The notes below the pieces were generated by a model. That model was not told the origin of the DNA. It saw nothing but the letters and a program-made list of their open reading frames with translations, and made no database searches. Shown here piece after piece: positions 41,691 through 58,870 of a DNA stretch of 64,000 nt. Within the stretch, counting starts at the first letter, position 1; each line of letters opens with the position of its first letter. The position numbers were made by a program, and so were the translations under genes. The DNA lies in contig CALUIR010000006.1 of NCBI GenBank assembly GCA_944320785.1, positions 6,192 through 70,191 of the forward strand. Direction: 5' to 3'. Source of the DNA: an uncultured Bacteroidaceae bacterium (GTDB lineage Bacteria; Bacteroidota; Bacteroidia; Bacteroidales; Bacteroidaceae).

Positions 41691-44000
41691 ATGAAGAACT
41701 ATTTATTTTTATTGGCATTCCTTTTTGTGAGTGCAACTGTTTTTGCCGTTCCTCAAGGAGATGGCAGTGTTGATAATCCTTATTTACTAACGGATGCTTC
41801 AGAACTGAATGAAATCCGTAATCATCCCGATGCGCATTACCGTTTGATGAACGACATCGATTTGGGAGACTGGCTTGCAGAAAACTCTCCCGAAGAAGGT
41901 TGGGAACCCATCAATGGTTTCACAGGTTCTTTGGACGGCAACGGTTTTGCCGTTTCAGGTTTCTGGATCAACCGTCCTTCCACCGACAAGGTGGGTTTGT
42001 TCGGCAGCATCTCTGGCGGCACAATCAAGCGTTTGGGCTTGTTGATGGCAGACGGGAAAGGCGTTGTCGGCAATAACAACGTCGGTGCTTTTGTGGGGCA
42101 CACTCCTTATTCCACATCGGCCATCACCATTGAAGAATGTTTTGTTTCGGGCGGCACGGTGGAAGCCAAAGGTTCTGCGGCAGGCGGCATTTTGGGATAC
42201 ACTTCCACGAACAGTGTGGTTCTCAACATTGTGAATTGTTATGTGGCTGGCACGATGGTGATTGGCGCGGATGGCGCAGGTGGCATTGTCGGCACGGCTT
42301 ACCGCAGCATTAATGTGGAGAACTGTTACAGCACAGGTCTTGTGAAGTCCGCGAACAATGATAAGTCGGCAGGCGGCATTGTCGGAGGGACGAATGACCA
42401 GAGTGATGCATATACAGTGAAGAATTGCATTGCTTTGAATTCGGAAATTCAATCTTCAAAATCGGCAGGCCGCATTGTGGGTTGGATAAAGAGTGCTGAT
42501 AAGACGGTACTTTCTAATAATTATGCTTTTGCTGGAACATTGGTGGATGGTTCAATGATATCAGGCGAATTGACAGACAGCAATGGCTTGAACAAGAGCA
42601 AGGAAGAAGTGAATGAACAGGCGACCTATGAATCTTTGGGTTGGAGTTTTGGTGAAGAAGGCGTATGGACGATGGGCAACGGCGAGTATGCTTTGCCGGT
42701 ATTGAAAAATGTCTCTATAGAAAAACAACCGATTGTAATGCCGGAACATTTGGAGATTGAAAAGGAATTGGGAAGTGTTGATAACCCTTATTTAGTGACA
42801 ACTGCTTCTGAATTGAATGACATTCGCAATAATCCCGCTGCGCATTACCGTTTGATGAATGATATTGATTTGACAGATTGGCTTGCAGAAAATTCTTCGG
42901 AGGAAGGCTGGGAACCGATTAATGATTTTACAGGATCTTTGGATGGCAATGGTTTTACCATTTCGGGCTTCTGGATCAACCGTCCTTCCACAGACAAAGT
43001 GGGTCTGTTCGGTAGTATTTCAGGTGGTACCATTAAACGTTTGGGCTTGTTAATCCCAGACGGGAAAAGCATTGTGGGAAACAACTATGTGGGCGGCATT
43101 GTCGGCCATACGCCTTATACGACATCGGCTATATCTATTGAAGAATGTTTTGTTTTTGGTGGAACGATTGAAGCGAAGGCTACTGCTGTTGGTGCCATAT
43201 TGGCTTATACTTCGACAAATAGTGTGACGGTGAACATTCGTAATTGTTATGTGGCAGGCACTACGGTGATTGGCGCAGATGGTGCAGGCGGCGTGACGGG
43301 TACTGCTTATCGGAGCATAAACATAGAGAATTGTTATAGTACCGGCATTGTGAAATCAACGAATGATGATAAATCGGCTGGAGGAATTATTGGTGGTGTG
43401 AATGATCAAGGAAAAGAATATATAGTAAAGAACTGCATTGCCTTGAATTCTGATATTCAATCATCAAAATCGGCAGGACGTATCGTTGGTTGGGTGAAAA
43501 CAGCAGATAAAACCACGCTTTCCAACAATTATGCTTTTGACGGAATATTGGTGGATGGTGTAACGGTGTCAGGTGTTGATACAGATAATAATGGCTTGGG
43601 CAAGAGCAGGGAAGAAGTGAGTGACCAGGCTACTTATGAATCCTTGGGTTGGGATTTCAGTGAGGAAGGTGTTTGGACGATGGGCAACGGCGAGTATGCT
43701 TTGCCGGTGTTGAAGAATTTTTCCATGGATAAACAACCCATTGCGATGCCAGAACACTTGAAAGGACCTTCTGTGCAAATTGGGGAGAAGGAATCGCCAG
43801 CTTTGCTTGTATATCCTACCGTGACGAATGGCATGGTGTTTATTGACAACAAGGCTGCTTCTTCGATGGTGTTTGTGTATGATTTGTCCGGGAATATGGT
43901 GATGCAGTCTGATGCATCGGCTTTGAATTTGTATCCTTTGTCTGATGGCATTTATTTGATAAAGGTAGAAGGCACAGTTGTTAAAGTACAAAAAGATTAG
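41691..44000 (+). CDS. Secreted protein made of two tandem GLUG-like modules plus T9SS sorting domain
   Basis: Signal peptide. Module 1 at aa 23-352 and module 2 at aa 359-688 are in register with a 336-aa offset. C-terminal VFVYDLSGNMV...GIYLIKVEGTVVKVQKD. Confidence 0.78.
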   Translation: MKNYLFLLAFLFVSATVFAVPQGDGSVDNPYLLTDASELNEIRNHPDAHYRLMNDIDLGDWLAENSPEEGWEPINGFTGSLDGNGFAVSGFWINRPSTDKVGLFGSISGGTIKRLGLLMADGKGVVGNNNVGAFVGHTPYSTSAITIEECFVSGGTVEAKGSAAGGILGYTSTNSVVLNIVNCYVAGTMVIGADGAGGIVGTAYRSINVENCYSTGLVKSANNDKSAGGIVGGTNDQSDAYTVKNCIALNSEIQSSKSAGRIVGWIKSADKTVLSNNYAFAGTLVDGSMISGELTDSNGLNKSKEEVNEQATYESLGWSFGEEGVWTMGNGEYALPVLKNVSIEKQPIVMPEHLEIEKELGSVDNPYLVTTASELNDIRNNPAAHYRLMNDIDLTDWLAENSSEEGWEPINDFTGSLDGNGFTISGFWINRPSTDKVGLFGSISGGTIKRLGLLIPDGKSIVGNNYVGGIVGHTPYTTSAISIEECFVFGGTIEAKATAVGAILAYTSTNSVTVNIRNCYVAGTTVIGADGAGGVTGTAYRSINIENCYSTGIVKSTNDDKSAGGIIGGVNDQGKEYIVKNCIALNSDIQSSKSAGRIVGWVKTADKTTLSNNYAFDGILVDGVTVSGVDTDNNGLGKSREEVSDQATYESLGWDFSEEGVWTMGNGEYALPVLKNFSMDKQPIAMPEHLKGPSVQIGEKESPALLVYPTVTNGMVFIDNKAASSMVFVYDLSGNMVMQSDASALNLYPLSDGIYLIKVEGTVVKVQKD
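41757..42746 (+). repeat. GLUG-like module coding repeat R1 (~0.99 kb)
   Basis: Aligns to R2 at a +1008 nt offset. Aligns to R3 at +3890 nt, dropping to +3887 after a 3-nt indel. 41861-42010 is identical to 45751-45900. Confidence 0.9.
42765..43754 (+). repeat. GLUG-like module coding repeat R2 (tandem copy in the same gene, more diverged)
   Basis: Same amino-acid register as R1, with many synonymous and conservative differences. Confidence 0.85.
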
Positions 44001-44012
44001 TTTGGGTTGTTT

Positions 44013-44052
44013 GTAAATGGGCGTGTCGGAATAGGCATGCCCATTTACCTTT
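44013..44052 (+). terminator. Possible intra-PUL terminator or attenuator
   Basis: 10-bp perfect stem GTAAATGGGC (44013-44022) / GCCCATTTAC (44039-44048), followed by CTTTT. Confidence 0.4.
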
Positions 44053-44068
44053 TAAACAGGATTTTATT

Positions 44069-46876
44069 ATGAGAGCAAAAATATTGATATCATTTTTAGC
44101 ATGTATTGCAACTTTGAATCTGAATGCGAGAGGTGCTGTTGTAGAAAACGGCGTAGCACTAGATGCGGATAACAATCAGGCTGTATTGACCAAGCTGGAT
44201 GTTGCTACGCAGATGAAAAAAGTCAATGACTATTATATGGCACGGCATCAAAGCCCAGGAAACAGTTGGGTCACTTCTGCTTATTTTGTAGGTTGCATGA
44301 AGTTTTATAATCTTTACCCAGAACAGCGGGTGTTGGACTACATGAATGGTTGGGCTGAAAATCATGAATGGAGTTTAGGAACTAATGCGGACAAACATGG
44401 GGCAGACGGGCAGGTTTGCGGACAGACTTATATTGACCTTTATGTGTTGGACGGGAAACGGGATGACCATAAAATCAATGCAATAAAAACATGCATTGAT
44501 GACTTGGTGGCCAATCCTTCTGAGTCGATAGATGATTGGTGGTGGGCGGATTCCTATTTTATGGCCATGCCTATTTTTGCCAAGCTGGGTGCTTTGTATG
44601 ATGATGATGCTTATTTCAAGCAGATGCATGATATGCAGGAATATTCCATGAATCGTTGGAAATTGTATAATGAAACAGACCATTTTTGGCATCGTGACAG
44701 TACCCAAGTATTTGGAAAAGCAGAAAGCCCCAATGGAAAGCCGGTTTATTGGTCGAGGGCAAATGGATGGGCCATTGCAGCATTTGCATTGGCGATGGAT
44801 TGTTTGCCGGACGACAGTCCTTATCGTGCGAAATATGTCCGATTATTGCAAGAAATGGCAGAGTCATTGCGTAATGTGCAACGTGAAGATGGGTTTTGGA
44901 ATAGGAACTTGGGTGACGACCAACATCTTCCGGGACCGGAAACCAGTGGCACGGCATTGTTTGCCTATGGCATAGCATGGGGGATTAATCATGGGATATT
45001 GGATGAAAATATTTATCGCCCGGTTGTGGAGAAAGCGTGGAATGGCTTGGTGGATATTGCAGTTCGGGAAGATGGTTTGTTAGGTTATGTCCAAGGACCG
45101 GGTTTCAAGCCTGAATCGAATTATCCATTGGATGAAAACACTTCTTATGACTATGGGGTTGGTGCTTTTTTGTTAGCAGGGAGTGAGGTGATTGAAATAG
45201 CAGAAGGAGATATGCCTGCGTTAGGTGATTTGCCAGATCGATTCGATGAGGAAGAAATCAATATGGAGGTGACTGCCAGTGCATCGGAAAATTCATCTCG
45301 GACTCCGGATAAAACATTGGACCGTGATTTCTCAACTCGTTGGTCTGCCGAAGGAGAACAATGGATTAAATACGATTTGTTGGAATCTGAAATAGTGAGT
45401 GCTGTGGAATTGGCTTTTTGGGATGGGCATAAAAGGAAGTTTTATTTTTCGATAGAATTGTCTGAAGATGATGAGAACTGGCAGGAAGCATTTGATGGCG
45501 AATCGAGCGGGACGGTGGATAATGATTGGGAGAAGTTTCCCATAACACCTTGTAAGGCGCGCTATGTGAGAATCAATGGACATGGCAATAGCAGCAACCG
45601 TTGGAATAGCATTTTGGAGACAAGGATTCATGCTGAGAAAATTCCTCCTTTAGGCAGTGCAGAAAATCCTTATTTAGTGACGGATGCTTCAGGGCTGAAT
45701 GAAATCCGCAATAATCCCAATGCGCATTACCGTTTGATGAATGACATCGATTTGGGAGACTGGCTTGCAGAAAACTCTCCCGAAGAAGGTTGGGAACCCA
45801 TCAATGGTTTCACAGGTTCTTTGGACGGCAACGGTTTTGCCGTTTCAGGTTTCTGGATCAACCGTCCTTCCACCGACAAGGTGGGTTTGTTCGGCAGCAT
45901 ATCCGGCGGCACCATCAAGTGTTTGGGCTTGTTGATAGCAGAAGGTAAAGGGGTTGTCGGTAATAATTACGTTGGTGCTTTTGTGGGGCATACGCCTTAT
46001 TCTACATCGGCCATTACCATTGAAGAATGCTTTGTTTCGGGCGGCACGGTGGAAGCCAAAGGTTCTGCGGCAGGCGGCATTTTGGGATATACATCCACGA
46101 ACAGCGTGGCTTTCAACATTGTGAACTGTTATTCAGGCACGACGGTAATTGGTGCGGATGGGGCAGGCGGCATTGTCGGCACGGCCTATCGTAGCATTGA
46201 TGTGGAGAACTGTTACAGTACAGGTATCGTGAAATCAGCGAACAATAATAAGTCAGCGGGCGGTATTGTCGGCGGAACAAATGCTTTGAGCGATTCTTAT
46301 GTGATACAGAATTGTATTGCATTAAATTCAGAAATTCAGTCTGCGAAGTCAGCAGGCCGTATTGTGGGTTGGATGAAAAGCGAGGAAAAAGCAAAACTTT
46401 CTAATAATTATGCATTTGCCGGAATGTTGGTGGACGGTGCAACGTTGTCAGGCACGGCAACAGACAACAATGGCCTGGACAAGGCCAAAGAAGAAGTGAA
46501 TGAACAGGCAACCTATGAATCTTTGGGCTGGGCTTTTGACGACGAAGGCATTTGGGTGATGGGCAATGGCGAGTATGCTTTGCCGGTATTGAAGAATGTT
46601 TCTATGGGGAAACAGCCGATTGTGATGCCGGAACATTTAAAGATGGATGATTCTTCTATTTTAGGTCTAAAAAAGCCTTTGTTTGTTTATCCGACTGTGA
46701 CAGATGGTGAAATATTCATTTATAATAAGCCGTTGCATTCAATGGTATTTGTGTATAACTTGTCGGGATGTTTGGTCTTGCAATCCGAGGCATCGGTCTT
46801 GAACCTTTCTTTTTTGCCTAAAGGCGTTTATTTGATAAAGGCCAATGATGAGATGGCAAAAGTGCAGAAACTGTAA
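44069..46876 (+). CDS. Four-module secreted protein: GH105/GH88-type unsaturated uronyl hydrolase + discoidin domain + GLUG-like module + T9SS sorting domain
   Basis: Glyco_hydro_88 fold motifs (DDWWWADSYFMAMP, YWSRANGWAIAAFA, ETSGTALFAYGIAWG, GLLGYVQGPG). Discoidin-like DRDFSTRWSAEGEQWIKYDL. GLUG-like module at nt 45647-46633. C-terminal VFVYNLSGCLV...GVYLIKANDEMAKVQKL. Confidence 0.8.
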   Translation: MRAKILISFLACIATLNLNARGAVVENGVALDADNNQAVLTKLDVATQMKKVNDYYMARHQSPGNSWVTSAYFVGCMKFYNLYPEQRVLDYMNGWAENHEWSLGTNADKHGADGQVCGQTYIDLYVLDGKRDDHKINAIKTCIDDLVANPSESIDDWWWADSYFMAMPIFAKLGALYDDDAYFKQMHDMQEYSMNRWKLYNETDHFWHRDSTQVFGKAESPNGKPVYWSRANGWAIAAFALAMDCLPDDSPYRAKYVRLLQEMAESLRNVQREDGFWNRNLGDDQHLPGPETSGTALFAYGIAWGINHGILDENIYRPVVEKAWNGLVDIAVREDGLLGYVQGPGFKPESNYPLDENTSYDYGVGAFLLAGSEVIEIAEGDMPALGDLPDRFDEEEINMEVTASASENSSRTPDKTLDRDFSTRWSAEGEQWIKYDLLESEIVSAVELAFWDGHKRKFYFSIELSEDDENWQEAFDGESSGTVDNDWEKFPITPCKARYVRINGHGNSSNRWNSILETRIHAEKIPPLGSAENPYLVTDASGLNEIRNNPNAHYRLMNDIDLGDWLAENSPEEGWEPINGFTGSLDGNGFAVSGFWINRPSTDKVGLFGSISGGTIKCLGLLIAEGKGVVGNNYVGAFVGHTPYSTSAITIEECFVSGGTVEAKGSAAGGILGYTSTNSVAFNIVNCYSGTTVIGADGAGGIVGTAYRSIDVENCYSTGIVKSANNNKSAGGIVGGTNALSDSYVIQNCIALNSEIQSAKSAGRIVGWMKSEEKAKLSNNYAFAGMLVDGATLSGTATDNNGLDKAKEEVNEQATYESLGWAFDDEGIWVMGNGEYALPVLKNVSMGKQPIVMPEHLKMDDSSILGLKKPLFVYPTVTDGEIFIYNKPLHSMVFVYNLSGCLVLQSEASVLNLSFLPKGVYLIKANDEMAKVQKL
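45647..46633 (+). repeat. GLUG-like module coding repeat R3 (near-identical to R1)
   Basis: See R1. It contains the 150-nt perfect identity block at 45751-45900. Confidence 0.9.
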
Positions 46877-46898
46877 CCTGCTAGTTGAATAATGGGTT

Positions 46899-49115
46899 AT
46901 GGAAAACTTTTGCGGAGGAATCGTATTGGCATTGGCCATATTGTTCGGATTGGGAGTGGAAGCCCAGGAACGTGACGTGGATATTGTGGCAGGCAGACTG
47001 ATTGCTTGCCAGCATCAGTTGTATGGGGATGTGGATCCTACAGTCCTGATGAATGCAATGCTTGACAACGGCAGTTGGGAAAACATTGATTATGCGGACA
47101 GGCATTCCGTGGATGCGGATGGGTGGCGTCCTCACGCTCATTTCTGCAATCTGGCGCAGATGGCTGCTGCTTATAGTATGCCGGGCAATACTTATTATAA
47201 AGATCCTTTGTTGTTGGATAAAATACGAAAGTCCCTTGAATTTGTCCATGCTTGGATTGGTGATCCTTTGGTGTATTCAGACAAGAAGCATCCTGACAGG
47301 AGGGACTTAGATAATTGGTGGTGGACGCAATTGGGGGATGCGCAAAAAATGATGGTAGCATTGTTGCTTGTCAAAGATGATTTGCCTTCAGATGACATCA
47401 AACGTTATTCCACCTTTCTAATAGACAGGACCAGTGACCCTAGTTATTTAGGAATGAATCTGGCTTCTGCGGCGGAAATTGCCTTATATAAAGGATGCAT
47501 AGAGGATGATGCGCAGTTGATATACAAGGGCTTTTCAGCTTATGCCTCTATTTTGAGGCTGGTTGATACGAAGTTTCCAATCAAGGCAGGAGAAAAGACA
47601 GGAGAAGGCTTCCAATATGATTATAGTTTCCATCAGCACCGTAGGCAGCTTCAGAGCGGAAGTTATGGTTTTGACTTGATTCCTGCCTTGACAAATAGCA
47701 TGTTGTTTGCGCAAGGGACATCTTTTGATGTCGCGTTCACGCAAGAAAACCGTTCGGTATATTCCAAAGGCATTCGGGAAGGGCATTTGCTTTTGAGTTA
47801 TCGTGGCACAATGGATTTTGGTTGCAAGGGACGTTCCATGGCAAAGAAGGGTTTTGATGAGACGCTTATTGGCAGGATTAAGGAAGTCGATCCCCAACAT
47901 GCCGATGTTTATGGAAAATGGGAAGAACATGTGGCCTGTGGCGGGGATTTTCCGGTGGTTGGCAATAAATATTTTTGGGATTCTAACATCATGACCCATC
48001 ATGGAAGGCAATATTATTTGTCGGCAAAAATTCAATCCGTGCGGAATGTTGGGACGGAATCTATCAACCAAGAGAACCTGAGGGGGCGCAATTTGCCTAA
48101 AGGAGCTACGAATATTCTTGTCACAGGTGATGAGTATGATGGAATTTATCCAGTCTGGGACTGGTGCCGGATTCCGGGCACGACAGCCGTATTGGATGTG
48201 TCGGGTGCCTGTCTGCCGGATGGTTATTTGTATGCGTCCAATGAGTTTGGAGGCGGAGTGACGGATGGCAGGTCTGGTATCATTGCGTATGCGGATGGTT
48301 ACGATGAAGAAAAGTACGGAGACAGGTTGACGGCCAAGAAAGCTTATTTCTTTATGGACGATTTCATGCTTTGCCTTGGAACGGCTATTAAGGATGACAG
48401 TTCATGCCCGGTGGTAACTTCGGTGAACCAATGTTTGCAGAACGGCTGTATCTATTATGGAGATGGGGATGGCGAAAAGATTTTGGATACTTCTTTGAAT
48501 GCCAATGGTGTTAGCTGGGTGCATCATGGGGGTGTTGGCTACATTTTTCCTTCATCCTCGGAAATAACCATTCAGGGGAGGAAACAGGCCGGTTCATGGA
48601 AGGACATAAACGGGACGCAAAGCGATGGGCTTGTCGAAAAGGACGTGTTCAGCTTGTGGATTAACCATGGGAAGAACCCCGATAATGCTTGTTGCCAATA
48701 TGCGGTGTTGCCAGATAGGACGCGGGAGGAAACGGCGGCTTTGGCACAAGACTTTCCTTTGGCTGTTGTTCGCAACGACAGCATGGCACAGGTCGTTTAC
48801 AGCGAAACGCTGGGGCAATACGGCATTGTGTGTTACGAGGCTGGAACGGTGGAATTGCCGGATGGCCTTATGATAGAAGTGGACAGGCCCGTCATATTCT
48901 TGTTGAAAATGTCAGGAGGGAAGTATGATTTTGTGGCAGCTGACCCCTTGTATGATGGTGAGGATGCTGTGTTGGATGTGTCTGTGTCAGAAAGGGCTAA
49001 GGATGGGAATGTGAAGGAAATGCTTGATTTCCAAGTGGATTTTCCACAAGGGCAATATACAGGGAGTTCTGTGGTAGTGGCGCATGGCGGATGTGGTTCC
49101 CGAAAAAATCCTTAA
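46899..49115 (+). CDS. PL8-family polysaccharide lyase (chondroitin AC / hyaluronate / xanthan lyase fold)
   Basis: Signal peptide. N-terminal alpha-toroid followed by a beta-sandwich. FHQHRRQLQSGSYG, WDWCRIPGTT and NEFGGGVTDG resemble PL8 catalytic-region motifs. Confidence 0.72.
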   Translation: MENFCGGIVLALAILFGLGVEAQERDVDIVAGRLIACQHQLYGDVDPTVLMNAMLDNGSWENIDYADRHSVDADGWRPHAHFCNLAQMAAAYSMPGNTYYKDPLLLDKIRKSLEFVHAWIGDPLVYSDKKHPDRRDLDNWWWTQLGDAQKMMVALLLVKDDLPSDDIKRYSTFLIDRTSDPSYLGMNLASAAEIALYKGCIEDDAQLIYKGFSAYASILRLVDTKFPIKAGEKTGEGFQYDYSFHQHRRQLQSGSYGFDLIPALTNSMLFAQGTSFDVAFTQENRSVYSKGIREGHLLLSYRGTMDFGCKGRSMAKKGFDETLIGRIKEVDPQHADVYGKWEEHVACGGDFPVVGNKYFWDSNIMTHHGRQYYLSAKIQSVRNVGTESINQENLRGRNLPKGATNILVTGDEYDGIYPVWDWCRIPGTTAVLDVSGACLPDGYLYASNEFGGGVTDGRSGIIAYADGYDEEKYGDRLTAKKAYFFMDDFMLCLGTAIKDDSSCPVVTSVNQCLQNGCIYYGDGDGEKILDTSLNANGVSWVHHGGVGYIFPSSSEITIQGRKQAGSWKDINGTQSDGLVEKDVFSLWINHGKNPDNACCQYAVLPDRTREETAALAQDFPLAVVRNDSMAQVVYSETLGQYGIVCYEAGTVELPDGLMIEVDRPVIFLLKMSGGKYDFVAADPLYDGEDAVLDVSVSERAKDGNVKEMLDFQVDFPQGQYTGSSVVVAHGGCGSRKNP

Positions 49116-50111: not shown

Positions 50112-50199
50112 AAAAAGACACGTATCTTTTTCCAAAAGGATACGTATCTTTTTCCAAAAGGATACGTATCTTTTTTGAAAAGGATACGCATCCATTTTC
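50112..50199. repeat. Four head-to-tail 22-bp units, each carrying the palindrome GATACGTATC
   Basis: Unit consensus AAAAGGATACGTATCTTTTTCC. The ACGTATC cores start at 50120, 50142 and 50164, and a degenerate ACGCATC starts at 50186, giving an exact 22-bp period. Confidence 0.9.
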
Positions 50200-50377: not shown

Positions 50378-50438
50378 ACGATTAGTAATCGTCCGGCATG
50401 ACGATTAGTAATCGTATGCGTTGACGATTACTAATCGT
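50378..50438. repeat. Three copies of the 15-bp palindrome ACGATTA-N-TAATCGT at an exact 23-bp period
   Basis: ACGATTAGTAATCGT at 50378-50392 and at 50401-50415. ACGATTACTAATCGT at 50424-50438. Confidence 0.92.
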
Positions 50439-50720: not shown

Positions 50721-52091
50721 ATGAATAAAATTTCATGTCCCGCATGCGGGTTCGCTTTGATGCTTCTCTTTTTCATGTTTTCTTGCAGCGGCCGTCGGCA
50801 ACACGACGTGGAGGAACTCTTTGCGCGTGCCGCCCGTTGGGAGGAAGCAGGACGTTTGGACTCCGCGTTGGTGGCGTACCAAAACGCTCTCCGAGAGTTG
50901 GAGAACACGGATGATGATGCGAAGAGAGGGGAAGCTCATTTGGCAATAGGAGGCATCTTGGTTAAATCGTTTTGGGACAGGGAAGCCTTTTCGGAATTTG
51001 CCAAAGCATATCAATGTAGCAAGGATTTGGAGGATAAAAGTATAGCTTCCAAAGCGTTGGTTTTTATGGGAAACTATCATACCTTTTATGGCAAAAAAGG
51101 TAAGATGGAAAGCACCAAACAGCATGGGGCGGACATGATTAATCGCACTCTGCGTTTCTTGCCACAGGTGGACAAAGAGACACGTGCAATCATTTACCAC
51201 AATGTGGCTTACGTGCATTATGAGAATGAGGATTACCGTCGGGCATGGATTTATGCGGCGATGTCGGATTTTTGCACTGAGGATAGCGCATTGTTGCATC
51301 GCAATGAATATACAAGGTGTTTGATATATCTTAAAACGGGCAGGAACCGTCAAGCGATAGAATCTTGCCAAGCCATGTTAACTTATCCGGATCCTTATCT
51401 GCAAGCATCGGCATGTACCGTCTTGATTCGGGCTTTTGGCCAATTAGACGACCGTGAACAAAGCCGGAATTATTCCCAACGGTTGGACAGCCTTATTTCG
51501 GGGCTTTCTTATAACAAGGAGGAGATTTTGGCAATATGGCAGCAAGGAACAGAGCCGGAAGGCATTCCTTTCCGCTATTGGGTGAAAGATTTGTGGGTGT
51601 TTTTAGTTGGGGGGATTGCTTTGTTGATATTCTATTTTGTGGCGAAGCGCAAGGCTGGATCGCAAGGCCAGCCATCTGGATTTTCTGATTTTCCACAGGA
51701 AAACTTGGATAAAGAAAATCTTGTCGCGCAGTTTTATGCCACAGAAATTGGCCGTAAAGTTCTGCAAATAAAAGAAGATGATGAAGCGGCAAAGCGGGGA
51801 GAGGCATTGAATAATAGTTTGTGCAACGGGGATTTGGATTTGTTGTCGCAAACTTTGCAGCAGTCCTTTCCCGTTTGTTGCCAAAAGTTGCTTCGCATTT
51901 ATCCGGACATTGTTCCCAAGGACTTGTCTTATTGCTGCCTGTCAGGGTTGCTGGGGTTAAGTTCCCGTTGTTGTGCGGCTTGCCTCGGTTTGTCATCCGA
52001 CAGCATCCGCACCAATAAAATGCGTATTAAAAAGAAGCTGTGCGTTACCCCCGGAGGCAAAGAACTTTTTGAGCAAATGTTCCCTTCATGA
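50721..52091 (+). CDS. One-component transmembrane regulator: signal peptide/lipobox + TPR-like ectodomain + single TM + C-terminal LuxR-type HTH
   Basis: N-terminal LMLLFFMFSCSG. Helical repeat region at aa 30-285. TM helix LWVFLVGGIALLIFYFVA followed by KRK (nt 51591-51644). C-terminal DLSYCCLSGLLGLSSRCCAACLGLSSDSIRTNKMRIKKKL matches the LuxR/GerE HTH pattern (nt 51918-52040). Confidence 0.65.
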   Translation: MNKISCPACGFALMLLFFMFSCSGRRQHDVEELFARAARWEEAGRLDSALVAYQNALRELENTDDDAKRGEAHLAIGGILVKSFWDREAFSEFAKAYQCSKDLEDKSIASKALVFMGNYHTFYGKKGKMESTKQHGADMINRTLRFLPQVDKETRAIIYHNVAYVHYENEDYRRAWIYAAMSDFCTEDSALLHRNEYTRCLIYLKTGRNRQAIESCQAMLTYPDPYLQASACTVLIRAFGQLDDREQSRNYSQRLDSLISGLSYNKEEILAIWQQGTEPEGIPFRYWVKDLWVFLVGGIALLIFYFVAKRKAGSQGQPSGFSDFPQENLDKENLVAQFYATEIGRKVLQIKEDDEAAKRGEALNNSLCNGDLDLLSQTLQQSFPVCCQKLLRIYPDIVPKDLSYCCLSGLLGLSSRCCAACLGLSSDSIRTNKMRIKKKLCVTPGGKELFEQMFPS

Positions 52092-52427: not shown

Positions 52428-52670
52428 ATGAATAAGGTTTTCATAAAAGAAAATCGCCTTCTCGCTTTGAAAGACGAAGAAGTATTGCAAGAATTTGAAA
52501 TGGTGGAATTGAAAGGTGGAAGTTCAATCAGTCCATTAGGGGATAATTATGGTTGCAATACTAGTGTTTGTGGATGCAATGTGAAAGATTGCAAGGATGA
52601 ATCAGATGTGTCGGATAAGTGTTACGAACCAGTAGAACCCAACTCTATGTATATCTGTTGGCCGAAGTGA
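52428..52670 (+). CDS. RiPP precursor peptide (80 aa): double-glycine leader + 49-aa six-Cys acidic core
   Basis: MNKVFIKENRLLALKDEEVLQEFEMVELKGG / SSISPLGDNYGCNTSVCGCNVKDCKDESDVSDKCYEPVEPNSMYICWPK. The leader fits the double-glycine consensus (hydrophobic at -4, -7 and -12; Glu at -8). It lies immediately upstream of the rSAM maturase and the C39 exporter. The start is at the internal Met of ORF 52254-52670. Confidence 0.7.
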   Translation: MNKVFIKENRLLALKDEEVLQEFEMVELKGGSSISPLGDNYGCNTSVCGCNVKDCKDESDVSDKCYEPVEPNSMYICWPK

Positions 52671-52678
52671 TGTTTTTA

Positions 52679-52701
52679 GGGTACGCCTATTGGGCGTACC
52701 C
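52679..52701 (+). terminator. Intercistronic hairpin (possible partial terminator or RNA-stability element) between precursor and maturase
   Basis: Perfect 9-bp GC-rich stem GGGTACGCC (52679-52687) / GGCGTACCC (52693-52701) with a 5-nt loop. It starts 9 nt after the precursor stop codon. There is no strong T-run. Confidence 0.5.
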
Positions 52702-52734: not shown

Positions 52735-54045
52735 ATGAAAACAAGCCGATATAACTATGTCATTCACGACAACGGGCAGTTGCTTTGCTTCAACGCCTTG
52801 TCGAGGGCGTATTTCTACATGCGCCCGGAGATGGAGCATTATTTGGACGAAGTGCTGGCTCGCCCGGATGACTACAAGGAAAAGCTGCCATCGTTCTACC
52901 AAAAGCTGTCGCAAGGATGGTTCATCGTGGACGAGACGGTGGACGAACTGGAGGTCATCCGCAAGCTGCACCGCGAGGCGTGCGATGCGAAGGATTACAA
53001 CCTCACCATCCTCCCCACCTTGGGCTGCAACTTCCGCTGCTGGTATTGCTACGAAGAACATGCGCAGGCCCGGCCGATGAGCGACGAAGTGGTGGGGCGC
53101 GTCCGCAAGTGCATTGCCCGGATTGTGGAGGAGAAAGATACACGCTCTCTGAACTTGACGTGGTTTGGCGGGGAGCCGTTCTTGCTTTTCCAAAAAATCA
53201 TCGCCCCGCTGAACACGTATGCCAAGGCGCTTTGCCGGGACAGGGGCATCCGCTTCTCCTCGTCGGCCACGACCAATGGGTATTTAATCAACGAAACTGT
53301 GGCGCGGCAGTTGGCGGAACTGTGCATCAACCATTTCCAAATCACCTTGGACGGCGACCGCACGCACCACGACCGCACGCGGGTGGCCAAGGAGGGGTCG
53401 TCGTTTGACACCATCCTGCATAACGTGAACCTCATCTGCCGGGAAAATTCGGAGGCGGAAGTGCTGCTCCGCTTCAACTATGAGGCCGGCAACTTCCTGC
53501 CGGAGCAAATCGCCCGGCAAGTGGCGGAGCGCGTTGGGAAGACCCATCGGAAGCGAATCCGCTTCATCTTCCGCAAGGTGTGGCAAGCCGAGGAAGTGCC
53601 GGACGTGAGGGCGAAGGTGCAGGAACTGATTCGCCTGCTGAAAGCGGAAGGCTTTGATTATGCCTACGGGTATGAGTTGGTGACAGATTATACTTCCTGC
53701 TATGCAGCCCGCAAGCACTCTATTGTCATCACGCCGGACGGCTTGGTGGGCAAATGCACGGCGAGGACTGATTTTGCGCAATATGCGGCGGGGCGGTTAG
53801 GCGAAGACGGGCGCATCGTGTGGAAAGAGGCAGGCGCATCGCTGAACGACATTTATGCCACGCCGCTGTTTGAGAACGAGATGTGCCTGTCGTGCAAGAA
53901 GCTGCCCCTGTGCATCGGGATGTGTCCCAAAATCATCAGCCCGGAGGGCAAGATACCTCCTTTGGATTATGCCTGCCCGCACAAGGACAAGCAGTTTGAT
54001 TGGGGCGACCTGATAGCGGGTTATTGCCGGATGCGGGATGCCTGA
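52735..54045 (+). CDS. Radical SAM peptide maturase with C-terminal SPASM domain
   Basis: CNFRCWYC (CX3CX2C, nt 53026-53049) and GGEPFL. Full SPASM signature: C337-X13-G-X4-C356, C399-X2-C-X5-C-X3-C412 and C429 (numbering from ORF 52690; nt 53698-53976). Start at the ATG at 52735 (MKTSRYNYV). Confidence 0.88.
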   Translation: MKTSRYNYVIHDNGQLLCFNALSRAYFYMRPEMEHYLDEVLARPDDYKEKLPSFYQKLSQGWFIVDETVDELEVIRKLHREACDAKDYNLTILPTLGCNFRCWYCYEEHAQARPMSDEVVGRVRKCIARIVEEKDTRSLNLTWFGGEPFLLFQKIIAPLNTYAKALCRDRGIRFSSSATTNGYLINETVARQLAELCINHFQITLDGDRTHHDRTRVAKEGSSFDTILHNVNLICRENSEAEVLLRFNYEAGNFLPEQIARQVAERVGKTHRKRIRFIFRKVWQAEEVPDVRAKVQELIRLLKAEGFDYAYGYELVTDYTSCYAARKHSIVITPDGLVGKCTARTDFAQYAAGRLGEDGRIVWKEAGASLNDIYATPLFENEMCLSCKKLPLCIGMCPKIISPEGKIPPLDYACPHKDKQFDWGDLIAGYCRMRDA

Positions 54046-54111: not shown

Positions 54112-56430
54112 ATGAGAGGGAAACGTTTTTGGGTAGCGGCGCTGGCAGGATGCTTGGCGGCGGCTGCGCATGCCTACAAGCTGGAAGGCACGTTGCAAGA
54201 TGCGGCGCAACGCCCCGTGGAGTATGCCAACGTGCAACTGTTGGGCAGGGACTCATCGTTCGTGGCAGGCACGGTGTCCGACCGTCGGGGCGCATTCATG
54301 GTGGAAGCCGACGGGGGCGACTACTTGCTGCGCGTGTCGATGGTGGGCTATGCCACGGTGACAAGGGAGGTGAGGAATGTGGCCGGTGATGTGCGGCTTG
54401 GCACGATTGTGCTGGAAGAAGCGACCAATGAGTTGGACAGCATTACGGTGACGGCTCACCGCATCATTCGCCGCATCGACCGGCAGATTGCGTTTCCCGG
54501 CAAACTGGAAACGGAAAGTTCTGCCACGGCCTTGGAACTGCTGAAGAAAATGTCGCTTCCTTTGCTGAAAGTGGACGACGTGAACCGCAGCGTGAGCATG
54601 GTGACGGGGGGCAGCGTGCAGCTACGCATCAACGGGCGTCCCGCCACGGTGGAAGAAGCCGCCCGCATCCCTTCGAAAGATATTATCCGCATTGAGTATC
54701 ACGATAACCCCGGCGTGCGGATACAGGAAGAAGCCTTGGTGGACTTCATTGTGCGCCGACGGGAAGCCGGAGGGCAAGTAGTGGTCAACACGCGGAATGC
54801 CGTTCACTTGTGGTTCAGCGATGATGATGTGACTTTCAAGGTGAACCACGGGCGTTCGGAATGGTCGGGCAACTACACGTTTTCTTACCGCGACTATGAC
54901 GATGCTTGGAATGAGGCGACCTTGGACTATACAACGCCGGAAGGAGAGTTCAGCCAGAAGTTAGATGGCATTCCTTCGCCTTTCTATTATCAGACGCATA
55001 ACATTGATTTGTCTTACAACTACACGAAGCCGGACAAGCGGATGCTGAACGTGCTTTACAGGGGGACTTACCATCGGAACAATTCATTGGACCGCGCTAA
55101 TGTGATGTATTCCGAATACCCGGAATGGAATTATACGTATGAAGACCGTGACAAAGATCCGTACAGCGTTTCTGCGTTGGACCTTTTCTATAAAGAGGAA
55201 ATCGACAAGACCCAGCGTGTGTATGCCGACCTGTGGGGAAGCTACACGGACACGAAATATGACCGGGAATACATTTACCGCAGCATGGCGCAACCCGATG
55301 CGGGCGGCAGCTATGTGAACCACACGAAGGGGAAGAAATACAGCCTGATAGCCGAGGCGGATTATGAAAAGGAGTGGGACAAGGTGAAGCTCTATGCGGG
55401 CGGGAAGTACAGTTGGGGACATGCTGACAACCGCTACCGAGGAACAACCGTGGCCAACACGGAGATGACCAATTCCGACCTTTATCTCTACTCCCAACTG
55501 ACGGGACGCTACAAGAAGCTGTCGTACCAAGTAGGCGTGGGCGTGTCGTATGCTTATTTTGACGAAGGGGGGGAGGGGTACAAGTTTTGGACGTTCCGTC
55601 CTTCTGCCTCCTTGAACTACCAGCAGACGGAGACGGGCGGATGGATGTTCCGCTACGATTTCCGAAGTTTGCCGAGCATTCCTTCGCTTTCCAGCCTCAG
55701 TGATGTGGAGCAAGACGTGGATCCATTGGTGGTCAGCCGGGGAACACCGGGCTTGAAACCGTACCGTTATTATGCAAATGCGATGATGGCGGGCTATGTG
55801 CATCCGAAAGTGACAGTCTATTGGGGCGGTGAGCATTATTATTATGACAATGTAATTATGACAAGCATGTGGTGGGACGATGCGCGGGGCAAGTTTGTTT
55901 CCGCGCCTGAAAACCAGAAACATTATCAGACAGCGAGGGCTTTTGCCGGCCTGCAATGGCAGGTGGTGAAAGATGTGTTCAACCTCTCGTTCTATGGGAT
56001 GGCAGGCTGGATGGAGAGCAAGGGGAACAATTTCCGCCATACTTATACGAGCCTTTACGGACGGGTCTCGGCTGATTTTTATTGGAAAGGATGGAACTTG
56101 GGCGTAAGTGCGCACAACCGCTTCCACAGCCTTTGGGGAGAAAGCCTGAGTTATGGGGAATGGCCGGGCTATGGTTTCTCTGGTGGTTACCGCTACAAAG
56201 ACTGGTACTTCGGCCTTTATGCCTGGGGGCCGTTCACAGATGCGGCAAGTTATTATAGCGAGTCCCTTCGGGAAGTGTATCGGAGAAAGTCGTGGCGCTA
56301 CATCGGGCAGTCATCCCCCATTTACATGTTGCAAGTCAACTGGAACTTCAATTGGGGCAGGAAGTCGCAAGCCGGGAAGAAAACGATTAACAACAGCGAT
56401 TCCGACACCGGCATTTTGAAGGCCAATTAA
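54112..56430 (+). CDS. Outer-membrane beta-barrel protein with CarboxypepD_reg-like N-domain (TonB-dependent-receptor-like, OMP_b-brl_3 type)
   Basis: Signal peptide (AAAAHA). YKLEGTLQDAAQRPVEYANVQLLGRDSSFVAGTVSDRRGAF. A plug-like segment, then about 550 aa of Y/W/G-rich strand repeats. Its stop codon lies 1 nt before the exporter ATG. Confidence 0.75.
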   Translation: MRGKRFWVAALAGCLAAAAHAYKLEGTLQDAAQRPVEYANVQLLGRDSSFVAGTVSDRRGAFMVEADGGDYLLRVSMVGYATVTREVRNVAGDVRLGTIVLEEATNELDSITVTAHRIIRRIDRQIAFPGKLETESSATALELLKKMSLPLLKVDDVNRSVSMVTGGSVQLRINGRPATVEEAARIPSKDIIRIEYHDNPGVRIQEEALVDFIVRRREAGGQVVVNTRNAVHLWFSDDDVTFKVNHGRSEWSGNYTFSYRDYDDAWNEATLDYTTPEGEFSQKLDGIPSPFYYQTHNIDLSYNYTKPDKRMLNVLYRGTYHRNNSLDRANVMYSEYPEWNYTYEDRDKDPYSVSALDLFYKEEIDKTQRVYADLWGSYTDTKYDREYIYRSMAQPDAGGSYVNHTKGKKYSLIAEADYEKEWDKVKLYAGGKYSWGHADNRYRGTTVANTEMTNSDLYLYSQLTGRYKKLSYQVGVGVSYAYFDEGGEGYKFWTFRPSASLNYQQTETGGWMFRYDFRSLPSIPSLSSLSDVEQDVDPLVVSRGTPGLKPYRYYANAMMAGYVHPKVTVYWGGEHYYYDNVIMTSMWWDDARGKFVSAPENQKHYQTARAFAGLQWQVVKDVFNLSFYGMAGWMESKGNNFRHTYTSLYGRVSADFYWKGWNLGVSAHNRFHSLWGESLSYGEWPGYGFSGGYRYKDWYFGLYAWGPFTDAASYYSESLREVYRRKSWRYIGQSSPIYMLQVNWNFNWGRKSQAGKKTINNSDSDTGILKAN

Positions 56431-56431
56431 T

Positions 56432-58645
56432 ATGCGGGCGCGGAAGTTCCCATATTGTCATCAACTGGATGCCATGGATTGCGGCGGGGCATGCCTTCGC
56501 ATGGTAGCAGCTTGCTACGGGCGCAACTTCTCCGGCCAGGAAGTGCAACGGCTCTGTGCGGCGGGGCGCGAGGGCGTTTCGGTGCTTTCCGTGTGTGAAG
56601 CGGCAGAGGCGATGGGCTTCCGCGCCGTGGCAGGCCGGGTGTCGTTGGAGAAGCTGACGGCGCAACAGCCCTTTCCCTGCATCTTGCATTGGCGGCAGGA
56701 ACATTTTGTGGTACTTTACGCCGTGAAGCGGAAGCATCGGGGCGACCGCTGGTTTTGCGTGGCCGATCCGGGGAAAGGACTACAGGCATTGGATGAAGAA
56801 ACTTTCAGGGAACATTGGCTGAGTACGCGTCGGCAGGGTGAAGAACGCGGCATTGTGGTGTCGCTCCAGCCTGCGGCAGCTTTCTTTGAGAAGCATCCTG
56901 CCTGTGGAAAGAAGGTGCCTGCGGCGGCTTTCCTGTACAGGTATATGCGGCCATACGGGAAGTTTTTCCTGCATCTGGCGGCAGGGCTGCTGTTGGGGAG
57001 CGTGTTGCAACTGATTGCTCCTTTCCTGACGCAGGCCATTGTGGACACCGGCATTGCCAACCGTGACATCGGTTTTATCTATTTGGTGCTGGCCGGGCAA
57101 TTGATGCTGGTGCTGAGCAGCACGGCCATCGACTTTGTGCGGCGGTGGATATTGCTCCACATCAGCGTGCGCGTCAACCTGTCGCTGCTGTCTGACTTCA
57201 TCATCAAATTGATGAAGCTGCCCATGGGCTTCTTTGAGGAGAAGCAAACCGGCGACCTGATGCAGCGGATGAACGACCACGAACGGGTGCAGCAGTTCCT
57301 TACCACGCAAACGCTCGGCATCCTGTATTCGCTTTTCAGCTTCGTGGTGTTCGGCGTGGTGTTGCTGTATTATGACGTTTGGATTTTTGCCGTGTTTGCC
57401 TTGGGCAGCCTGCTTTATGCCGGATGGATTGGCCTGTTCCTGCGGCGGAGGCGGACGATTGATTATGAATATTTCGAGCAAAGGGCCTTGAACCAAAGCA
57501 AGACGATGCAACTGTTGGGCGGCATGCAGGAGACAAAGCTGCAAGGATGCGAAAGCCGCCGCCGGTGGGAATGGGAAGACGTGCAGGCGGGACTGTTTCA
57601 AGTGAACATGAAATCGCTGAAACTGTCGCAAGCCCAAGAGGTGGGCGGCGTTTTCATCAACCAAGCCAAAAGCATTGTCATCACCATCATGGCGGCAACG
57701 GCCGTGGTGGACGGGCGTTTGTCGTTGGGCATGATGCTGGCCATTCAATATATCTTAGGGCAGTTGTCCTACCCGGTGGAGCAATTGCTGGCTTTCATCT
57801 ACCATTGGCAGGACGTGAAAATCAGCTTGGAGCGCATGGCGGAAATCCATGTGCAGGAAGATGAAAATGAAGGGAGGCGCATGGATTCGCCTGTCCCGAG
57901 CAGCCCTGCTGCCATAGATGTGGCAGATGTGAGCTTCCAGTATGAAGGAAAACATTCACCGAAGGTGCTGGACCATGTGACGCTGCACCTGCCGCAGGGG
58001 AAGGTGACGGCCATTGTGGGCGGAAGCGGCAGCGGGAAAACTACTTTGGTGAAATTGTTGTTGGGCTATTATGTTCCCACGGACGGGGACATCCGGGTGG
58101 GCGGGGCGGCGTTGGCCGGGATGGACAAAAAGAAATGGCGGCGGCAATGCGGCGTGGTGATGCAGGACGGCTACATTTTTTCGGAGTCCATCGCCCGCAA
58201 CATTGCGGTGGGCGACGGGGAGATAGATTCTCAAAGATTGAAGGAAGCCGCCCGTTTGGCCTGTGTGGATGAATTTGCAGAACGCTTGCCGTTGCGATAT
58301 GACACGGTGGTGGGAATGGACGGGCGGGGCATCAGCCAAGGGCAGCGGCAGCGCATCCTGATAGCCCGCGCGGTATATAAAGATCCGCCTTTCCTGTTTT
58401 TCGATGAAGCGACCAACTCATTGGACACTGTGAACGAGCGGGTTATCATGGAAAACCTGGATGGATTTTATAAAGGGAAAACCGTAGTGGTAGTGGCGCA
58501 TCGGTTGAGTACGGTGCGCCATGCGGACCAGATTGTGGTGCTGGACAAAGGACGGGTGGTGGAAACAGGTACGCATGAGGAACTGGCTGCCCGCAGGGGG
58601 GCTTATTTTGAATTGGTGAAGAACCAGCTTGAACTGGGAGAATAG
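56432..58645 (+). CDS. Bacteriocin-type ABC exporter with N-terminal C39 cysteine peptidase domain
   Basis: C39 motif QLDAMDCGGACLRMV (catalytic Cys17, nt 56480-56482). Six-TM domain. Walker A GGSGSGKTT, signature ISQGQRQR, Walker B FLFFDEATNSLD. Confidence 0.92.
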   Translation: MRARKFPYCHQLDAMDCGGACLRMVAACYGRNFSGQEVQRLCAAGREGVSVLSVCEAAEAMGFRAVAGRVSLEKLTAQQPFPCILHWRQEHFVVLYAVKRKHRGDRWFCVADPGKGLQALDEETFREHWLSTRRQGEERGIVVSLQPAAAFFEKHPACGKKVPAAAFLYRYMRPYGKFFLHLAAGLLLGSVLQLIAPFLTQAIVDTGIANRDIGFIYLVLAGQLMLVLSSTAIDFVRRWILLHISVRVNLSLLSDFIIKLMKLPMGFFEEKQTGDLMQRMNDHERVQQFLTTQTLGILYSLFSFVVFGVVLLYYDVWIFAVFALGSLLYAGWIGLFLRRRRTIDYEYFEQRALNQSKTMQLLGGMQETKLQGCESRRRWEWEDVQAGLFQVNMKSLKLSQAQEVGGVFINQAKSIVITIMAATAVVDGRLSLGMMLAIQYILGQLSYPVEQLLAFIYHWQDVKISLERMAEIHVQEDENEGRRMDSPVPSSPAAIDVADVSFQYEGKHSPKVLDHVTLHLPQGKVTAIVGGSGSGKTTLVKLLLGYYVPTDGDIRVGGAALAGMDKKKWRRQCGVVMQDGYIFSESIARNIAVGDGEIDSQRLKEAARLACVDEFAERLPLRYDTVVGMDGRGISQGQRQRILIARAVYKDPPFLFFDEATNSLDTVNERVIMENLDGFYKGKTVVVVAHRLSTVRHADQIVVLDKGRVVETGTHEELAARRGAYFELVKNQLELGE

Positions 58646-58651
58646 TGCGGT

Positions 58652-58801
58652 ATGGATGAATTGAAAAATATTGAATTACGGAGCGAAAAGGCGAGAAACA
58701 TCATTGGGAGGATGCCACGTTCGTTGACCGTGTGGAGCTACGTGGTGTTGTGCGTGGTGGCTGTTTTATTGGCTTTGGGGATATGGATTGCTAATAAATG
58801 A
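58652..58801 (+). pseudogene. 49-aa remnant of a HlyD-type membrane-fusion (periplasmic adaptor) protein
   Basis: MDELKNIELRSEKARNIIGRMPRSLTVWSYVVLCVVAVLLALGIWIANK* resembles the cytoplasmic N-tail plus TM anchor of Bacteroidales bacteriocin HlyD proteins. The whole periplasmic domain is missing, and only 77 nt remain before the convergent gene. Confidence 0.45.
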
Positions 58802-58829: not shown

Positions 58830-58870
58830 TTGCCCTCCGCCGATGTGACATCGCCGGAGGGCAATCTTTT
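58830..58870 (+). terminator. Terminator of the RiPP operon
   Basis: TTGCCCTCCG (58830-58839) / CCGGAGGGCAA (58854-58864) stem followed by TCTTTT. Confidence 0.55.

Follow-up and report, generated by a model that had tools for sequence, protein, structure and literature searches.

The stretch of DNA considered here (the window: 64,000 nucleotides, positions 6,192 to 70,191 of contig CALUIR010000006.1, assembly GCA_944320785.1, from an uncultured Bacteroidaceae bacterium) contains at 50.7–58.8 kb a compact plus-strand operon for a peptide made by ribosomes and then modified post-translationally (RiPP), made up of genes for a regulator, a precursor, a maturase, an outer-membrane barrel, an exporter and a 49-aa open reading frame (ORF). 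The barrel gene (54112–56430, plus strand), located between those of the maturase and the exporter, encodes a 772-aa protein that on the evidence of its structural model is of the TonB-dependent transporter (TBDT) type, with a TBDT-type β-barrel and an N-terminal plug. As judged from gene neighborhoods, the gene belongs integrally, and by inheritance, to a cluster type that consists of a double-glycine (GG) leader precursor, a radical S-adenosylmethionine (rSAM)/SPASM maturase, the barrel, a C39 peptidase-ABC exporter (peptidase-containing ABC transporter, PCAT) and an adaptor that lacks the coiled-coil hairpin.

These properties bear on the open question of how small double-glycine peptides pass across the outer membrane of Bacteroidales. 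A study of bacteroidetocins could not exclude release by lysis (PMC6671954), and a 2023 survey asked whether clusters with a "PCAT and OMP, yet no MFP" (OMP, outer-membrane protein; MFP, membrane fusion protein) use a distinct mechanism (PMC10352776). The cluster layout is itself already in the literature, in the form of ItfF, of a Parabacteroides cluster and of the clusters of that survey, and our search of the literature turned up no experiments on a barrel of this kind. New here are the predicted TBDT fold and the TonB box conserved with it, a description of the parts of the mini-adaptor, statistics on gene linkage, and the finding of a PCAT clade among 100 PCAT loci. The locus emerges as part of a widespread and stable lineage, whose exporter is accompanied by a barrel of the TonB type and by an adaptor devoid of its TolC-docking part.

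A predicted TonB-dependent transporter with a conserved TonB box

The barrel ORF is intact (ATG at 54112, TAA at 56428–56430). A preliminary description of the locus, made from the sequence alone, had called its product a TonB-receptor-like outer-membrane barrel with a CarboxypepD_reg-like head and a plug-like segment, and each of these elements is recovered, the head by Pfam and the fold by AlphaFold, Foldseek and VIA-align. The CarboxypepD_reg domain, at residues 24–113, is the only one found by Pfam (PF13620, E 7.8e-13; PF13715, E 1.8e-10); neither Plug (PF07715) nor TonB_dep_Rec (PF00593) gave a match at E <= 0.01, and a search of NCBIfam returned no family. Because Pfam reports no plug or barrel family, these two parts could be checked by structure only.

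The AlphaFold2 model, built on an alignment of 40 homologues, has a mean predicted local distance difference test score (pLDDT) of 85.1 and a predicted template modeling score (pTM) of 0.72. Its main features are a disordered linker at residues 105–115 (pLDDT < 50), a mixed α/β segment at 118–214 and continuous long strands from 219 to 750. Foldseek ranked TBDTs first (Cir, OprC, ChuA and BtuB; E ~1e-17, probability 1.0), and all 50 of the listed best structural matches are TBDTs. With VIA-align, model residues 116–746, plug included, align with BtuB, OprC, PirA, FhuA and Cir at Z scores of 20–23.

From these data the protein can be divided, on the plus strand throughout, into a putative Sec signal peptide read from the sequence (residues 1–21, cleaved between AHA and YK; 54112–54174), of which residues 4–15 are helical in the model; a CarboxypepD_reg-type N-terminal extension (residues 22–101; 54175–54414) modeled as a β-sandwich with pLDDT 82–90; a TonB box, LDSITVTA, in the disordered linker (residues 108–115; 54433–54456); a plug domain (residues 118–214; 54463–54753) that aligns with the plugs of BtuB, OprC, FhuA and others and is shorter than canonical plugs; the TBDT-type β-barrel itself (residues 219–750; 54766–56361), whose model strands fit the known structures with a root-mean-square deviation of 3.2–4.2 Å over 459–550 aligned residues; and a conserved, disordered C-terminal tail (residues 751–772, with the TAA codon; 56362–56430).

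The preliminary description had proposed that a TonB box be sought by structure prediction, and one is found. The BtuB chain of the BtuB:TonB complex 2gsk aligns its residues 5–594 with model residues 108–746, and LDSITVTA stands at the very start of the aligned stretch. The TonB box of BtuB, which we take to be DTLVVTANR, can be compared with LDSITVTAHR in the window. The pattern L-x-[DE]-V-x-V-x-A is retained in most of the 36 RiPP-linked barrels listed, even on branches longer than 1.5 substitutions per site. An alignment of homologues also shows an invariant R172-I-N-G175 motif inside the plug region. The barrel gene is under purifying selection; comparison with a near-identical relative at the locus designated L001 (loci carry L numbers throughout) gives 25 synonymous and 10 non-synonymous codon changes.

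The C-terminal tail is modeled with a pLDDT of only 25–42, and its residues N761, D763 and G767 are invariant. Tails of 15–25 aa are found in divergent relatives as well, several of them ending in ...RL. Canonical TBDTs end at a terminal aromatic residue, and for that reason the tail may serve for contact with a partner in the periplasm.

As to family, the window protein is best seen as a divergent relative of PF14905 (OMP_b-brl_3), because it has no PF14905 match at E <= 0.01 while precomputed PF14905 hits exist for many homologues that are 28–42% identical to it. In the RiPP-linked barrels of L143, L146 and L159 the PF14905 matches reach 114–153 bits, and Plug and PF00593 are matched by divergent RiPP-linked relatives too, with 24.1 bits for Plug in L159 and 41.2 bits for PF00593 in L143. 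Two other assignments were considered and rejected. A SusC/RagA-type TBDT acting with SusD is not indicated, as the barrel matched no NCBIfam family (e.g., TIGR04056) and its neighbors are an rSAM and a PCAT gene; nor is the protein a TolC/OEP outer-membrane factor, given that the barrel had no PF02321 match and that the listed structural matches are TBDTs without exception.

Linkage of the barrel to peptide genes

A further check proposed in the preliminary description was whether the barrel co-occurs with the maturase across genomes or is merely a chance neighbor. The second possibility is not borne out; even in clusters that have diverged strongly, the barrel is kept together with maturase and exporter. 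At all seven independent loci whose barrel is 36–49% identical to that of the window, maturase, C39 exporter or leader-bearing precursor genes adjoin it. These loci come from a barrel-centered set composed of the 80 best loci among species-representative genomes, together with closer homologues recovered from metagenomes. Every one of the closer homologues from metagenomes is linked to peptide genes. Among the 80 species-representative loci, maturase and exporter both adjoin the barrel only at L001, which comes from a metagenome-assembled genome labeled "uncultured Bacteroides sp." (barrel 99% identical), and at L002 (49%); the remaining barrels are 30–35% identical and lie in housekeeping contexts.

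The order of the genes is also shared. An rSAM gene is followed by the barrel at L001, with its 99% identical barrel, and at L002, L081, L082/83, L085 and L088 (36–49%), and the barrel is followed by PCAT at L001, L002, L082/83 and L086/87. The full arrangements are precursor, rSAM, barrel, PCAT and a 157-aa protein at L082/83; precursor, rSAM and two successive barrels at L081; barrel, precursor, rSAM, barrel and precursor at L085; small ORFs, rSAM and barrel at L088; and barrel and PCAT followed by a 166–169-aa protein at L086/87. At L084 (8001–16141), three barrels surround leader-bearing small ORFs, with neither an rSAM gene nor an exporter within 8 kb. The flanking context of L084 is the same as that of the rSAM-bearing locus L081, and L084 may be a receptor-only or decayed variant.

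A second set, centered on the rSAM gene, comes from an evenly drawn sample of 400 genomes of Bacteroidales, 34 of which yielded the 40 loci examined. A PF14905-like barrel lies inside the cluster at 21 of the 40 loci (19 genomes, ~18 family codes) and directly after the rSAM gene at 17. In other orders of the class, barrel and PCAT stand beside the rSAM gene in two of three hits. Phylum-level rSAM hits outside the class, mostly from one family code (hit in 26 of 87 genomes), came without barrel or PCAT alongside and were set aside as different systems.

A second cluster type occurs in Parabacteroides (L026 and L060). At L026 (1958–12277) the genes encode, in order, a PCAT, a 382-aa HlyD-like protein, a GT2 glycosyltransferase, an rSAM/SPASM enzyme, a 52-aa GG-leader precursor, a second rSAM/SPASM enzyme and the barrel. 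The rSAM family at L026 is a different one, which shows that linkage of the barrel extends to two maturase families at least. Gene order is kept across clusters whose barrels are only 20–49% identical, across two rSAM families and across ~18 family codes.

The window and L001 can be compared gene by gene. Amino acid identity is 99% for the barrel, 98% for the maturase and 92% for the exporter, and falls to 52% for the precursor core and 29% for the regulator. At the nucleotide level, identity declines to background upstream of ~52,700, with the leader kept; the regions concerned are 52428–52700 and 50721–52091 of the window and L001:6203–8560.

In a tree of the barrels, the RiPP-linked members make up deep, long-branched diversity, and those without peptide genes form a compact derived clade. 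Clustering of neighbors within 4 kb at the 80 loci revealed no dominant family as a shared partner of the peptide-less barrels. The largest group, at 16 loci, is a regulator containing tetratricopeptide repeats (TPR), and the rest are housekeeping genes (YaaA, adenylosuccinate lyase, peptidase S46). No convincing GG-leader small ORF was found upstream of the peptide-less barrels except at L026 and L060. The C-terminal domain of the window's regulator, discussed further below, recurs in proteins of 534–648 aa, some with weak TPR matches, that sit 178–510 bp from 17 peptide-less barrels (e.g., L022:7941–9818), either upstream on the same strand or divergently; it is also present at a few RiPP-linked loci. 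This distribution suggests a recurrent barrel-regulator pair.

Genes for S41 peptidases recur in or beside related rSAM clusters (L131, L158, L163 and L081). In related clusters without a barrel, the S41 peptidase gene sits between maturase and exporter, and its product may provide an extra processing step.

A mini-adaptor and its exporter lineage

Double-glycine exporters, as the preliminary description pointed out, usually have an HlyD adaptor and a TolC channel as partners; an adaptor is in fact present here, but as a stub of 49 aa (58652–58801, plus strand) that comprises only a cytoplasmic IELRSEK… tail and a transmembrane (TM) helix. The N-terminus of this ORF (…IELRSEK…IIG…P, then the TM helix) is common to the gene 3′ of PCAT in related clusters, as seen in adaptors of 139–172 aa and of 430–446 aa. 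In clusters without a barrel, that gene encodes an HlyD-family protein (PF13437) of 366–446 aa; in barrel-bearing clusters it usually encodes a hairpin-less protein of 139–172 aa, or a stub of 49–75 aa. In an alignment, the short adaptors retain their N-terminal tail and TM helix as well as the C-terminal β domain, and are missing ~270 aa that correspond to the lipoyl domain and the coiled-coil hairpin. The model of the L002 adaptor (pLDDT 80) consists of a TM helix and a β domain of ~90 aa, and structure comparison matches the latter to the β-barrel domain of MacA, EmrA, MexA and BesA. The hairpin is the part of such pumps that reaches and opens TolC.

The extent of the association was surveyed from the side of the exporter. 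A PCAT search with the threshold E <= 1e-120 was positive for 149 genomes out of 401, and 100 further loci were fetched. Among 100 PCAT loci where both states could be scored, those with a barrel have a short adaptor in 24 cases and a long one in 8, and those without a barrel have a short adaptor in 2 cases and a long one in 66. Raw Fisher values for barrel against short adaptor (7e-4 and 3e-14) make the link look stronger than it is and are given no weight as proof. Most of the signal can be located on the PCAT tree, in a single clade (support 100) that includes the window: all 24 scored adaptors in it are short, and the barrel is present at 23 of the 24 loci with known barrel state. L128, inside the long-adaptor group, is apparently a separate occurrence. 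Because the link between barrel and short adaptor lies mostly in one exporter lineage, independent events are few. The honest reading of these phylogenetic data is that exporter, mini-adaptor and barrel form a stably co-inherited module, rather than a demonstrated case of repeated hairpin loss after gain of the barrel.

In the window genome, which is 84% complete, the PCAT is the only C39 gene found. The same 84%-complete assembly has about ten TolC-family genes, all away from the operon, and neither a full-length HlyD of the bacteriocin type nor a second member of the barrel family was found in it.

Relation to known systems

A TBDT gene inside a RiPP operon has a precedent in MbnT of the methanobactin operons. 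MbnT differs from the window barrel in that it imports the metal-loaded product, export being the task of a separate MATE pump, and in having no link to a PCAT or adaptor.

The canonical PCAT-HlyD-TolC systems (e.g., colicin V, PMC10352776) share with the window a C39-ABC exporter and an adaptor gene directly 3′ of it with the same N-terminal tail and TM helix. They differ in that the window-type adaptor lacks lipoyl domain and hairpin (in the window itself, everything past the TM helix) and in that the outer-membrane protein of the cluster is a plugged TBDT in place of a TolC/OEP channel.

Closest in gene layout are several clusters of Bacteroidales. The itf RiPP cluster of Bacteroides thetaiotaomicron has a TBDT gene, ItfF (WP_004319394.1; Clark and Seyedsayamdost 2022, via PMC11002830). 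So far as the layout is given in that account, it resembles the window in combining precursor, rSAM enzyme, C39-ABC exporter and in-cluster TBDT, and differs in having a YcaO enzyme, which the window cluster is without, and in its precursor family. A RaS-RiPP (radical SAM RiPP) cluster of Parabacteroides distasonis has been drawn with a "TonB-dependent receptor" (PMC9389541). This cluster and BGC6-9 of Fernandez-Cantos et al. 2023 (PMC10352776) show the order found here, i.e., precursor, RaS enzyme, TonB-dependent receptor or OMP, and peptidase-ABC, as genes that are only depicted in those papers. At graspetide loci of Bacteroidetes, barrels of the pfam14905 type were predicted to be export components (PMC8939145); these belong to the same broad barrel family and are likewise at RiPP loci of the phylum, although the RiPP class is another one (ATP-grasp) and the association is statistical only.

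The best functional comparison is with Oar of Myxococcus xanthus, which, along with the TonB box it carries and with the Ton system, is needed for the second step in the two-step secretion of PopC (PMC6434023). Oar and the window barrel have the same domain order, with a PF13620 N-terminal extension, TonB box, plug and barrel, and show no detectable close sequence relation. The cargoes are different: Oar handles a folded protease, whose way into the periplasm is unknown, and the window barrel would handle a peptide of ~50 aa delivered by PCAT.

Direction of transport

The preliminary description listed exit, immunity or decoy, and re-uptake as roles between which the sequence could not decide, and in that it was right: sequence leaves the direction of transport undecided. 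We nevertheless regard one scenario as the best working model, while giving it slightly less than an even chance. By analogy with Oar and PopC, the barrel would be a TonB-gated outer-membrane exit for the finished peptide. In this scenario the maturase would first cross-link the Cys-rich core, and PCAT, as is known for its family, would then cleave the leader after GG and carry the peptide across the inner membrane. Because an adaptor without a hairpin cannot build a duct to TolC, the peptide should next be set free in the periplasm instead of being passed along such a duct. Finally, the barrel would bind the mature peptide, and the pull of TonB on the TonB box would open a passage through the outer membrane, most probably outwards. 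Overall this would amount to two-step secretion resembling that of PopC through Oar. The barrel is the only outer-membrane protein kept with the window's exporter lineage. In principle, passage either way might be possible through a gate opened by TonB.

A broader version of the proposal, which we put forward with a little more reserve still, is that Bacteroidales possess a dedicated three-part module for peptide secretion (C39-ABC exporter, hairpin-less adaptor and peptide-specific, TonB-gated barrel) that replaces the PCAT-HlyD-TolC duct by a two-step route. If such a module exists, it would answer how gut Bacteroidales get double-glycine peptides over the outer membrane. An implication of an exit function is that the barrel would be the second known TBDT, after Oar, to work outwards, and the first to do so for peptides; it would also offer a practical handle for producing and detecting such peptides.

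There are several points that weigh against an exit function. To our knowledge, all TBDTs characterized so far except Oar import their ligand, and conservation of the TonB box would be just as fitting for an importer. A full-length adaptor persists in eight of the clusters with a barrel, in one of them (L164) together with a TolC-family gene, so that in these eight the barrel is not simply a replacement for TolC. On the PCAT tree, L284 is a counter-example; 4 changes of adaptor state stand against 12 of barrel state, and in 8–9 independent contrasts the adaptor moved with the barrel in ~1.5, never moved against it, and showed no difference in 6.5. Some loci have two or three barrels, or barrels and precursors with no PCAT within 8 kb (L081, L084, L085, L129 and L138), and arrangements of this kind look more like peptide-specific receptors than like a single export duct. 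The compact derived clade of peptide-less barrels, in housekeeping contexts and often beside a TPR-TM regulator that has the C-terminal domain in common with that of the window, is more readily understood if the proteins are importers or sensors, and would suit a pairing of barrel and periplasmic sensor. Lastly, the cores served by the barrels of the window and of L001 are quite different although these barrels are 99% identical.

Much of this evidence leads to the principal alternative, which we consider unlikely on balance and yet deserving of serious attention, namely that the barrel is a cognate receptor. The peptide would exit by other means (vesicles, lysis or an unlinked channel), and the barrel would re-import it, in a TonB-dependent manner, into the periplasm of producers and their kin for sensing or metal delivery. 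Import is the default activity of TBDTs, MbnT and the TBDT genes in astexin-type lasso-peptide clusters are precedents for such a receptor, and the conservation of the TonB box, the loci with several barrels and the loci with barrels and no exporter would all be accommodated. The conserved clade of peptide-less, "solo" barrels would be reminiscent of xenosiderophore receptors. In addition, the operon is headed by a regulator with an extracytoplasmic TPR-like domain, similar to the regulators near the 17 peptide-less barrels, and in a sensing variant of the idea this ectodomain could detect the re-imported peptide, resulting in autoinduction. What a receptor would leave unexplained is the loss of the adaptor hairpin almost only in barrel-bearing clusters, and it would also leave the peptide without an exit. 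Moreover, the clusters have neither an importer of the inner membrane nor a periplasmic binding protein as a conserved component, and the TPR-type regulator is present at only ~5 of roughly 45 RiPP-linked loci. Were the barrel a receptor after all, these clusters would be circuits for peptide signaling or scavenging in abundant gut bacteria.

A much less probable scenario is immunity by receptor replacement or decoy, in which the peptide would kill relatives by passing through or attaching to their housekeeping barrel of the family and the producer would carry a resistant allele. The Bacteroidales BSAP toxins and their receptors are a reported precedent for a resistant receptor allele beside toxin genes. 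Such an arrangement would fit the occurrence of the housekeeping clade (30–35% identical) in many Bacteroides and Parabacteroides, the presence in the 84%-complete window genome of the in-operon family member only, and the long branches of RiPP-linked barrels. A decoy, however, could do without conservation of the TonB box and without being tightly linked to a single lineage of PCAT and mini-adaptor; no antibacterial activity is known for the peptide family, and nearly identical barrels go with different cores.

The least probable reading of all, that the barrel is an unrelated nutrient transporter travelling with the cluster, would suit the many family members that lie in housekeeping contexts without a conserved partner, and is already disfavored by the comparative data, i.e., by a gene order that persists despite barrel identities of 20–49% and extends over both rSAM families and the ~18 family codes, by a recurring 1-nt junction with the exporter gene, and by retention of the barrel at 23 of the 24 known-state loci of the window's PCAT clade. 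Part of the probability is given to none of these four readings.

Other features of the operon and its surroundings

The junction just mentioned is a gap of one base (56431) between the stop codon of the barrel and the ATG of the exporter. Its coordinates agree with the preliminary description, which took it to imply co-translation. That wording is too strong, as the junction suggests either translational coupling or co-expression. The same 1-nt junction is repeated at L086, in a relative whose barrel is 36% identical. The operon has genes for a GG-leader precursor, an rSAM/SPASM enzyme, a TBDT and a C39-ABC exporter in one orientation, and their order recurs in related loci; a Pfam gene search of the operon found no YcaO.

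The first gene of the operon (50721–52091, plus strand) encodes the putative membrane-spanning regulator, with a signal or lipobox-like N-terminus, a TPR-like ectodomain (its TPR matches are weak and under the Pfam cut-off), one TM helix and a cytoplasmic C-terminal domain, as read from the translation. It is followed by the gene for the 80-aa precursor peptide (52428–52670, plus strand), in which a leader ending in ...FEMVELKGG precedes an acidic 49-aa core with six Cys residues, the C-terminal end being ...YICWPK. This leader, of the pattern LLAL..EV[LI]KEFEM[VI]EL[KQ]GG, is shared by L081, L082, L084 and L085, ahead of different Cys-rich cores.

A GC-rich hairpin with a T-rich tail (52679–52701, plus strand; stem of 10 pairs, 7 of them GC) is located 9 nt 3′ of the precursor stop codon. 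It resembles an attenuator, by which the amount of precursor relative to enzyme would be kept high. The hairpin overlaps the TTG-extended frame of the maturase, which is open from a TTG at 52690; from its ATG, the maturase gene (52735–54045, plus strand) encodes a radical SAM/SPASM protein of 436 aa with PF04055 and Fer4_12 matches. Its SPASM domain scores above the cut-off for TIGR04085, and its best NCBIfam match is TIGR04463, at 168.7 bits against a cut-off of 525. The exporter (56432–58645, plus strand; 737 aa) has the C39 peptidase and ABC transporter domains PF03412, PF00664 and PF00005. Beyond the adaptor stub, a terminator-like hairpin with a 14-bp stem and one mismatch (58832–58862, no strand assigned) separates the operon from a convergent M6 protease gene.

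G+C content is 51–55% in the block from maturase to exporter, ~47% in the stretch with regulator and precursor, and 39–45% in most of the window further upstream. The organism is a gut bacterium of Bacteroides-like type.

Finally, we note some features upstream of the operon. The gap between an AraC-type gene and the regulator gene contains, at 50112–50199 and 50378–50438, direct 22-bp repeats around GATACGTATC as well as the palindrome ACGATTAGTAATCGT in three copies, which are probably operator sites. At 41691–49115 lie genes for a PL8 polysaccharide lyase and for two proteins with a type IX secretion tail, one a GH88 protein that also has an F5/8 type C domain and the other a GLUG-motif protein. 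This has the look of a set for glycosaminoglycan degradation that has nothing to do with the peptide operon.

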